A program made the translations under genes and the position numbers. Source: an uncultured Planctomycetales bacterium (lineage in GTDB: Bacteria > Omnitrophota > Gorgyraeia > Gygaellales > Profunditerraquicolaceae). From it: DNA of 64,000 bases. The DNA lies in NCBI GenBank assembly GCA_964645795.1, contig CAZYCL010000003.1, positions 188,290-252,289 on the forward strand. Reading direction: 5' to 3'. This document shows, one piece after another, positions 18,088 to 18,115 of this stretch (the stretch's first letter is position 1; each line of letters opens with the position of its first letter). The notes beneath the pieces are model-generated. The model had not been told where the DNA came from, did no database searches, and saw nothing but the letters and a program-made list of their open reading frames with translations.

Positions 18088-18115
18088 AGTCAAGATACAT
18101 TATAGGAAGTTGACT
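18088..18115. repeat. Right attachment site: 28-bp dif-like 11-6-11 site (agtcaagatac-attata-ggaagttgact) with imperfectly palindromic arms
   Basis: Left arm agtcaagatac versus reverse complement of right arm agtcaacttcc (8/11 match); 6-bp AT-rich spacer. Confidence 0.45.

Follow-up and report, generated by a model that had tools for sequence, protein, structure and literature searches.

Integrase-less double jelly-roll (DJR) prophages that reside at dif have been described in Vibrio under the names NO16 and "Asemoviridae" (Kalatzis et al. 2023, PMC9966536). In a survey of Vibrio DJR elements the phage attachment site, attP, was found either as a full 28-bp site or as a left- or right-armed 17-bp site, and the elements carried a module of P16/RstR and P15/XafT (Ma & Zhang 2025, PMC12715192). 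The attP of TLCphi, a satellite phage of V. cholerae, has only poor affinity for XerD and depends on XafT as its activator (Midonet et al. 2014, 2019; PMC6744903, PMC9226527). For the gonococcal genetic island (GGI), the summary passage in PMC6744903 has it that the missing XerD arm is thought to prevent FtsK-dependent excision.

The 64,000-nucleotide stretch of DNA analysed here, referred to as the window, holds an insert whose borders and gene content can be compared with those of the systems above. Taken as a whole, the locus is very likely to represent an integrase-less DJR phage that has entered the host dif through a one-armed attP by host XerC/XerD recombination, with TLCphi as the closest mechanistic model and an HTH_17 protein as the proposed accessory factor.

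Boundary repeat and attachment sites

The two boundaries of the insert share an exact 21-bp direct repeat, AAGATACATTATAGGAAGTTG, the copies of which are positioned at an att-to-att spacing of 10,979 bp (Table 1); the chance expectation for 21-bp repeat pairs of this kind in 64 kb is ~0.0005 (5e-4). The repeat comprises the central 6 bp and the 11-bp XerC arm, flanked by 2 bp of the XerD arm on one side and 2 further bp on the other. No tRNA gene was found in the 64-kb window.

The preliminary description of this DNA had proposed dif-like sites at 18088-18115 (agtcaagatac-attata-ggaagttgact) and 7109-7136 (acataagatac-attata-ggaagttggcg), and both strings occur exactly as it wrote them. The 11-6-11 geometry that it recognised holds insofar as a dif is present at the locus, but its register lies 5 bp too far to the right, and the palindrome AGTCAA...TTGACT that it emphasised involves outer bases only and does not correspond to the symmetry of Xer arms. 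In genuine dif sites the palindromy is located in the inner arm bases, and the inner arm bases at 7104-7131 display the palindrome ATAA/TTAT. The right boundary had moreover been taken as the better dif, but an arm-by-arm scan assigns the full dif to the left boundary and a degenerate hybrid to the right. The segment 18088-18115 was rejected as a dif candidate on these grounds: its symmetry is restricted to the outer bases, and the match to the consensus is found at the other boundary, at 7104-7131, in a register 5 bp to the left.

The left site, attL, reads ACTTCCTATAA-TGTATC-TTATGTTAACT on the minus strand from 7131 to 7104, with the XerC arm ACTTCCTATAA at 7131..7121, the central TGTATC at 7120..7115 and the XerD arm TTATGTTAACT at 7114..7104. 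On the plus strand 7104-7131 corresponds to AGTTAACATAA-GATACA-TTATAGGAAGT, and each arm matches the dif of the lineage at 11/11 positions. The right site, attR, reads ATCCTAGTCAA-GATACA-TTATAGGAAGT on the plus strand (18083-18110). Its XerC arm (18100-18110, 11/11) and its central hexamer (18094-18099, 6/6) are the same as in dif, and the position of the XerD arm (18083-18093, ATCCTAGTCAA) is occupied by unrelated phage DNA that matches at 4/11 positions. The attP of the window provirus is accordingly reconstructed as ATCCTAGTCAA-GATACA-TTATAGGAAGT, within the junction …CCTAGTCAA-GATACA-TTATAGGAAGT-TGGCGGAATGG…, and the corresponding attB junction is reconstructed as …ATATGCTCA-dif-TGACTCATAGGGC….

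Table 1 Features of the provirus, its attachment sites and the adjoining host genes (positions are those of the window)
Feature	Position	Strand	Evidence
Host lexA, upstream of a 104-aa ORF and then dinB	4630-5229		
Host dinB, Y-family polymerase, left neighbour of dif	5785..6936	+	Pfam IMS, IMS_C
Chromosomal dif, attL of the provirus	7104..7131	-	20/22 arm match to B. subtilis dif
Left copy of the 21-bp direct repeat, crossover region	7113..7133	+	exact repeat
Predicted PM2/corticovirus-like DJR provirus body	7134..18091	+	gene content; synteny with circular L133-L136, L153
Replication-initiation-like protein, weak DnaD/O-like match	7192..7866	+	PHROG 186/345, E 5e-5 to 2e-3
FtsK/HerA-type genome-packaging ATPase	10715..11353	+	Pfam DUF87, FtsK_SpoIIIE above cut-off
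DJR capsid protein (MCP), PM2 coat type	12301..13152	+	Pfam P2_N 2.8e-9, P2_C 3.1e-20
F5/8-type-C (galactose-binding-like) domain protein	15137..15703	+	Pfam F5_F8_type_C_2 2e-11
Cargo gene, predicted membrane protein, 299 aa, GC 0.34	16865..17764	-	opposite strand
Xis/RDF-like winged-helix protein, HTH_17, 66 aa	17870..18070	+	Pfam HTH_17 4e-10
Pseudo-dif, attR	18083..18110	-	arm-by-arm scan
Right copy of the 21-bp direct repeat	18092..18112	+	exact repeat
Host DUF134 gene, right neighbour	18168..18518	-	Pfam DUF134 4.7e-24

Identity of the left site as chromosomal dif

The experimentally confirmed dif of B. subtilis is ACTTCCTAGAA-TATATA-TTATGTAAACT and that of E. coli is GGTGCGCATAA-TGTATA-TTATGTTAAAT (Kono et al. 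2011, PMC3025954). When the window is searched with the B. subtilis arms and the central hexamer masked, exactly one match is obtained, with 2 mismatches in 22 positions, and none of 100 shuffled sequences gave a match. In a direct comparison the XerD arm of the window agrees with the E. coli arm TTATGTTAAAT at 10/11 positions. A scan of one genome per species, in which both arms had to be exact and the centre was left free, recovered the site in at least 120 genome contigs belonging to Bacilli, to Mollicutes-like genomes and to many Candidatus Omnitrophota MAGs, against a chance expectation of ~0.07 matches (our own estimate from the size of the collection). Among the matches listed there is one dif per contig or locus, the exception being L087 with a duplicated site. 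The central hexamers are typical of the lineage, those of Omnitrophota being GATATA or GATACA. Thus, sequence comparison shows 7104-7131 to be the host dif, the predicted site of chromosome-dimer resolution.

The preliminary description had tied its reading to a position at the chromosomal terminus, which is marked by GC skew, and the skew does flip at the site. With every locus oriented as in the window and 3 kb taken per side, Omnitrophota-type loci display a skew of +0.054 on the left and -0.092 on the right, the left value exceeding the right in 25 of 26 (p=6e-8); in Bacilli-type loci the values are +0.118 and -0.145 (left above right in 42/44, p=1e-12). This flip across the oriented loci is the signature of a replication terminus. 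Inside the window itself the evidence for a terminus position is only suggestive, with a skew of +0.004 on the left, flat over a flank of only 7 kb, and of -0.080 on the right. The genes follow a comparable division, 9/9 to the left of the site lying on the plus strand and most of those to the right on the minus strand; the GC skew at codon position 3 is dominated by the coding-strand effect in the window, where the left flank comprises only 9 genes.

In ~35 Bacilli or Mollicutes-like loci (L010-L125) the 8-kb block that holds dif also contains a xerD-like gene, whose product shares 35-43% identity with E. coli XerD; none was seen beside dif in the Omnitrophota loci. Neither a XerD-like gene nor xerC or xerD was detected in the 64-kb window by tblastn with E. 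coli XerD as query, which readily finds xerD genes in other loci.

Host flanks and uninterrupted loci

The left neighbour of dif is dinB, preceded by lexA and a 104-aa ORF, and the right host flank consists of the DUF134 gene followed by rpoN. The preliminary description had named a cognate integrase gene immediately outside the window as one of the findings that would speak against its reading; the genes that directly adjoin the insert are dinB and DUF134. The size and position of dinB (5773-6936) were suggestive of an integrase, a candidate that was rejected as Pfam identifies the product as a Y-family polymerase. The host most likely belongs to Omnitrophota.

The order lexA-orf-dinB, dif, DUF134(-rpoN) is found uninterrupted in at least 12 Omnitrophota MAG loci, as established by tblastn of the flanking proteins of the window against the dif loci. 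In one of these comparisons (L021) the flanks are nearly identical to those of the window and read AAGTATGCTCA-dif-TGACTCATATGGCAA without interruption, where the window has CAATATGCTCA-dif, 11 kb of inserted DNA and then TGACTCATAGGGCAA. A metagenome scan with the 21-mer added 13 further uninterrupted dif sites, all of them adjoining DUF134. The comparison with relatives lacking the element, proposed beforehand as a means of defining the empty site, yields dinB and DUF134 on either side of an unoccupied dif in both MAGs and metagenomes. An empty site of the same species was not found in the metagenome scan, which returned empty sites of other species together with circular phage. In Logan contigs from ERR14964780 and ERR14964774 that carry a 100% identical DUF134 or dinB, the contigs end within 1 base of the edges of the repeat (L001, L002 and L007, the last of which lacks the final base of the repeat). 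A graph built with k=31 is not expected to break at a repeat of 21 bp; the contig ends hint at a mixed population, and these two samples probably hold more than one junction variant, either the empty site or another insert.

Several further observations concern the host DNA. The gene for DUF134, a sigma-70 region-4-like HTH protein, is no more than a few hundred bp away from dif in 35 Omnitrophota-type genome loci and 13/13 metagenome loci, and the opposite side of dif is often occupied by dinB (loci L015-L124, L141-L154), an unusually rigid linkage between dif and its neighbouring genes. Upstream of dinB and overlapping its start, a 34-nt unit, GGGTGACTTGGTGACCAGTTCAATTTTACTTACC, is repeated in tandem at 5698-5799 (2.5 copies); in L007, an otherwise identical contig from another sample, the intergenic region is 34 nt shorter and the tandem array is lacking. 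From the two sequences, the array constitutes a copy-number polymorphism in the predicted leader of the lexA-dinB operon. Farther to the right, ~39600-63750 is taken up by a long minus-strand cluster for polysaccharide biosynthesis and export, with genes for a Bac_transf sugar transferase, GT2 and GT4 glycosyltransferases, a pyruvyl transferase, an epimerase and Poly_export, and with a GC content of 0.33-0.44 over ~42-58 kb. This cluster is probably a variable EPS/O-antigen-like island.

Gene content of the insert

By its predicted genes the insert is a PM2/corticovirus-like tailless phage. The features expected of PM2-like phages (Vinavirales) are found together: a DJR capsid protein, with P2_N and P2_C matches that both exceed the gathering score, an FtsK/HerA-type ATPase that is 53-68% identical to the copies of its relatives, an element size of 10,979 bp and circular relatives of ~10.25 kb. 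The first gene past attP encodes the replication-initiation-like protein, and orthologues 37-45% identical to it are also located beside attP in L133 and L128. The F5/8-type-C domain protein is probably a spike or receptor-binding protein, for which tblastn gave no match in the three relatives compared (L128-L140).

The cargo gene lies between the structural genes and the lysogeny module formed by HTH_17 and attP, a placement that resembles the hypervariable regions of Vibrio DJR prophages. Searches of Pfam, PHROG, PADLOC and NCBIfam gave no match for it, and it is absent from the relatives compared; with PADLOC and NCBIfam the cargo genes gave generic HTH matches only. Two element-specific ORFs are located at 7867-8744, one of them Cys-rich with 200 aa and the other of 92 aa. 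Neither has homologues in the libraries searched or a counterpart in the three related phages compared, and a PDB sequence search with the ORF at 7867-8469 gave no match.

The preliminary description had stated that the element encodes no tyrosine or serine recombinase, and Pfam and PHROG searches of all element ORFs of at least 60 aa agree, being negative for these families and likewise for DDE, HUH and other recombinase domains. Several ORFs are without family assignment, among them 9567-10058, 10064-10624, 13733-14146 and 14535-15134. It could be argued that one of these encodes an unrecognised phage recombinase and that dif is merely its conserved target. This is very improbable: the ORFs that the family has in common are of small size and for the most part resemble structural or membrane proteins, no recombinase, resolvase, DDE or HUH match is obtained, attP copies the host XerC arm and hexamer exactly, as a Xer substrate needs to, and integrase-less dif-type DJR phages have precedent.

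Related phages and proviruses

Homologues of the MCP number 77, with identities of 29-80%. Many are located on contigs of 10-12 kb, and some are named as originating from Candidatus Omnitrophica MAGs. The contigs of one relative, P0003 (MCP 78% identical), come from several samples and are rotations of one another with terminal overlaps of 124-257 bp; they are thus circular genomes of ~10.25 kb. The circular relatives contain a single attP, ACCCCCTCCAA-GATACA-TTATAGGAAGT, and no recombinase family is found in the gene calls on these or on the other relatives. In L137 the P0003 phage is joined to different host DNA. A search of IMG/VR with the 21-mer gave no match, and MCP peptide patterns gave no relative there.

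At least four other proviruses share the layout of the window. In L128-L131 (56%), L160 (57%) and L159 (62%) a full dif is present on the left and the central hexamer with the XerC arm on the right, where unrelated sequence fills the position of the XerD arm; the L160 provirus is inserted at the same dinB/DUF134 locus. The right junction of L157 (49%) is of the same kind and lies beside DUF134, the contig ending before the left junction. Scored against the dif of the window, the XerD arms of the relatives match at 2-5/11 positions (the arm of L159 was left out). The phage copy follows the dif of its host: GATATA hosts carry GATATA phages, GATACA hosts and phages are likewise matched, and the phage of L159 has the XerC arm of its host, TTATAGGCGGT. 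The order of the genes is also kept throughout the family, running from attP through the Rep-like gene, the ATPase, the MCP and HTH_17 back to attP, and the genes of the window provirus are collinear with those of the circular genomes and complete relative to them. A decayed prophage that has lost its integrase, with a 21-bp repeat that is an ordinary att core happening to overlap dif, would account for an Xis-like gene, which normally accompanies an integrase, in an element that has none, but is most improbable of all, as the free circular relatives have the same gene set and the same one-armed site and also lack an integrase, at least five independent proviruses share the architecture, and the gene complement is intact by comparison with the circular genomes.

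The mirror type is represented by L155/L156 (MCP 43%), in which the XerD arm and the centre are shared and the XerC arm is degenerate; both one-armed types thus occur in this phage group. In these two a Rep_trans rolling-circle replication module replaces the DnaD/O-like gene. In L128/L130 a ~1.1 kb methyltransferase gene is inserted between a transglutaminase-like gene and dif, and L129/L131 are without it. The gene possibly marks another small insertion, located on the side of dif where the XerD arm lies.

Proposed mechanism of integration

The preliminary description had suggested integration of the IMEX type, in which an element without an integrase relies on Xer at dif. A canonical dif, the empty sites and the circular relatives bearing attP lend support to this reading, and the hallmarks of an IMEX are found at the locus, namely a dif regenerated at attL, a dif-like attP and no self-encoded integrase. 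We infer Xer catalysis from the structure of the att sites, the unoccupied loci, the missing integrase and the circular relatives that carry attP, read together with what is known of IMEX biology (PMC6744903, PMC9226527), and on this reasoning the provirus almost certainly borrows host XerC/XerD; the sequence in which the strands are exchanged and the part played by the HTH protein are further conjectural elements of the scheme.

In the scheme proposed, attP would act as a one-armed mimic of dif, with a perfect XerC arm, a central hexamer identical to that of the host and no recognisable XerD arm. Host XerC and XerD would bring attP and dif together in a synapse, and strand exchange would take place at either edge of the central region common to both. 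One product, attL, would be a full functional dif, in which the XerD arm of the host is joined to the central hexamer and a XerC arm, and the other, attR, would be a pseudo-dif devoid of the XerD arm. With an intact dif at attL, dimer resolution in the host would be kept, and the missing XerD arm of attR would disfavour excision driven by FtsK/XerD. As attP and dif agree at all six central positions, both strand exchanges would be chemically possible. Canonical binding of XerD at attP appears doubtful because the site is essentially without a XerD arm. DUF3653/XafT, the sole known activator for such sites, gave no match in the element ORFs, including the small ones, for which the cut-off was relaxed to E<=1.

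This last result, together with a perfect XerC arm and the lack of a XerD arm at attP, would also suit a XerC-first route as in CTXphi and VGJphi, an FtsK-independent route used by many IMEXs (PMC9226527). By this route one pair of strands would be exchanged and replication would resolve the Holliday junction, XerD would have no catalytic role, no phage activator would be needed and HTH_17 would be only a transcriptional regulator. We regard this explanation as possible but rather unlikely. A single strand exchange needs a match only at the XerC-side bases, and the attP of VGJphi differs on the XerD side. Here, in contrast, all six central bases match the host dif in every lineage examined, both where the hexamer is GATACA and where it is GATATA. 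The rigid linkage of the Xis-like gene to attP is a second point against the XerC-first route.

The HTH_17 protein beside attP

In the preferred reading, exchange by both host recombinases at a one-armed attP, the HTH_17 protein becomes a candidate for the accessory part. The Xis/AlpA-like HTH gene noted from the outset is indeed present in the element (Table 1). It is the last gene of the element, its stop codon located 12 bp before the degenerate arm of attP/attR, and orthologues lie directly upstream of attP/attR in L133, L130, L157, L159 and L160. Across the family, 12-30 bp separate the end of this gene from the armless side of attP. The structural model of the protein, built on a 3-sequence alignment since the homologue search gave only 2 proteins, has a pLDDT of 81. 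Its best folds in the PDB are BldC, the Xis of the mycobacteriophage Pukovnik, RdfS and the GIsul2 excisionase. The TM-scores of these matches are 0.64-0.79, and their E-values, at 0.008-0.1, are weak; a PDB sequence search with the protein gave no match.

The position of the gene and the modelled fold suggest, as a hypothesis, that HTH_17 may be an accessory or directionality factor. More tentatively, and with the odds against it, HTH_17 could represent a novel type of accessory factor for Xer, one without kinship to either XafT/DUF3653 or FtsK-gamma, that licenses or directs XerCD at a dif paired with an armless attP. Such a factor would bind beside the missing XerD arm or in its place. If this were true, excisionase-type directionality factors would have been recruited to control a host recombinase.

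Implications

Omnitrophota is a largely uncultured phylum and, to our knowledge, one without characterised mobile-element biology; a full-text search found no literature linking it with PM2-like or DJR prophages. What is new here is the host phylum, the Bacillus-type dif and the different candidate accessory protein, the strategy and the virus group being already known. The dif of Omnitrophota can be defined as nearly identical to that of the Bacillus type and anchored between dinB and a DUF134 gene. Hijacking of Xer by tailless DJR phages would not be peculiar to Vibrio and would reach a distant lineage, in which a phage family of ~10 kb tracks the dif sequence of its hosts. Prophage finders based on integrases are expected to miss such elements, whose exact borders can be read from the pairing of a full dif with a half dif. 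A natural series of attP sites without a XerD arm, accompanied by a different candidate accessory protein, should be useful for the study of Xer activation outside cell division.

Comparison with known systems

The provirus shares most of its features with the dif-type DJR prophages of Vibrio (PM2-/NO16-like, Vinavirales). Both are small, circular and tailless, of ~10-13 kb, with a P2-type MCP and an FtsK/HerA ATPase; both are without an integrase and sited at dif, with a full or one-armed attP mimic and one junction that regenerates dif, and in both the cargo genes adjoin the lysogeny module. In contrast, the host here is likely a member of Omnitrophota, and dif is Bacillus-like (ACTTCCTATAA...TTATGTTAACT) where that of Vibrio is of the gammaproteobacterial type. 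The lysogeny module of Vibrio consists of P15/XafT and P16/RstR, and here an Xis-like HTH_17 protein is found; a domain search beside attP revealed neither XRE/RstR nor DUF3653, a comparison in which P15/P16 are represented by their description only. The replication module is DnaD/O-like, unlike that of the Vibrio dif-type DJR prophages.

CTXphi is likewise an integrase-less phage that enters dif via host XerCD. Its attP, however, is a folded ssDNA hairpin of two inverted dif-like sites, whereas the provirus family described here belongs to a dsDNA virus group, and two inverted dif-like sites were not found in the circular relatives, each of which has only one strong site when both strands are counted. 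The GGI, which spans 57 kb and carries the genes of a type IV secretion system, differs in that it is not a phage and has no circular attP form comparable to the phage genomes found here.

TLCphi and the provirus have in common a good XerC arm, a dif-like centre, a functional dif left on one side and an accessory gene near attP, the window site matching the host dif at 11/11 positions in the XerC arm, 6/6 in the centre and 4/11 in the XerD arm. In contrast to the provirus, TLCphi is a satellite of the filamentous kind that replicates by an HUH rolling-circle mechanism, and its XafT carries DUF3653, which is absent here, the modelled HTH_17 fold resembling excisionases and not XafT. The XerD arm of TLCphi is weak, whereas here the sequence in the XerD-arm position is completely different between lineages. 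With complete identity of the central region and a missing XerD arm, the TLCphi type, which is characterised by XerD-first, FtsK-independent catalysis, is thus the closest mechanistic model for the proposed integration.
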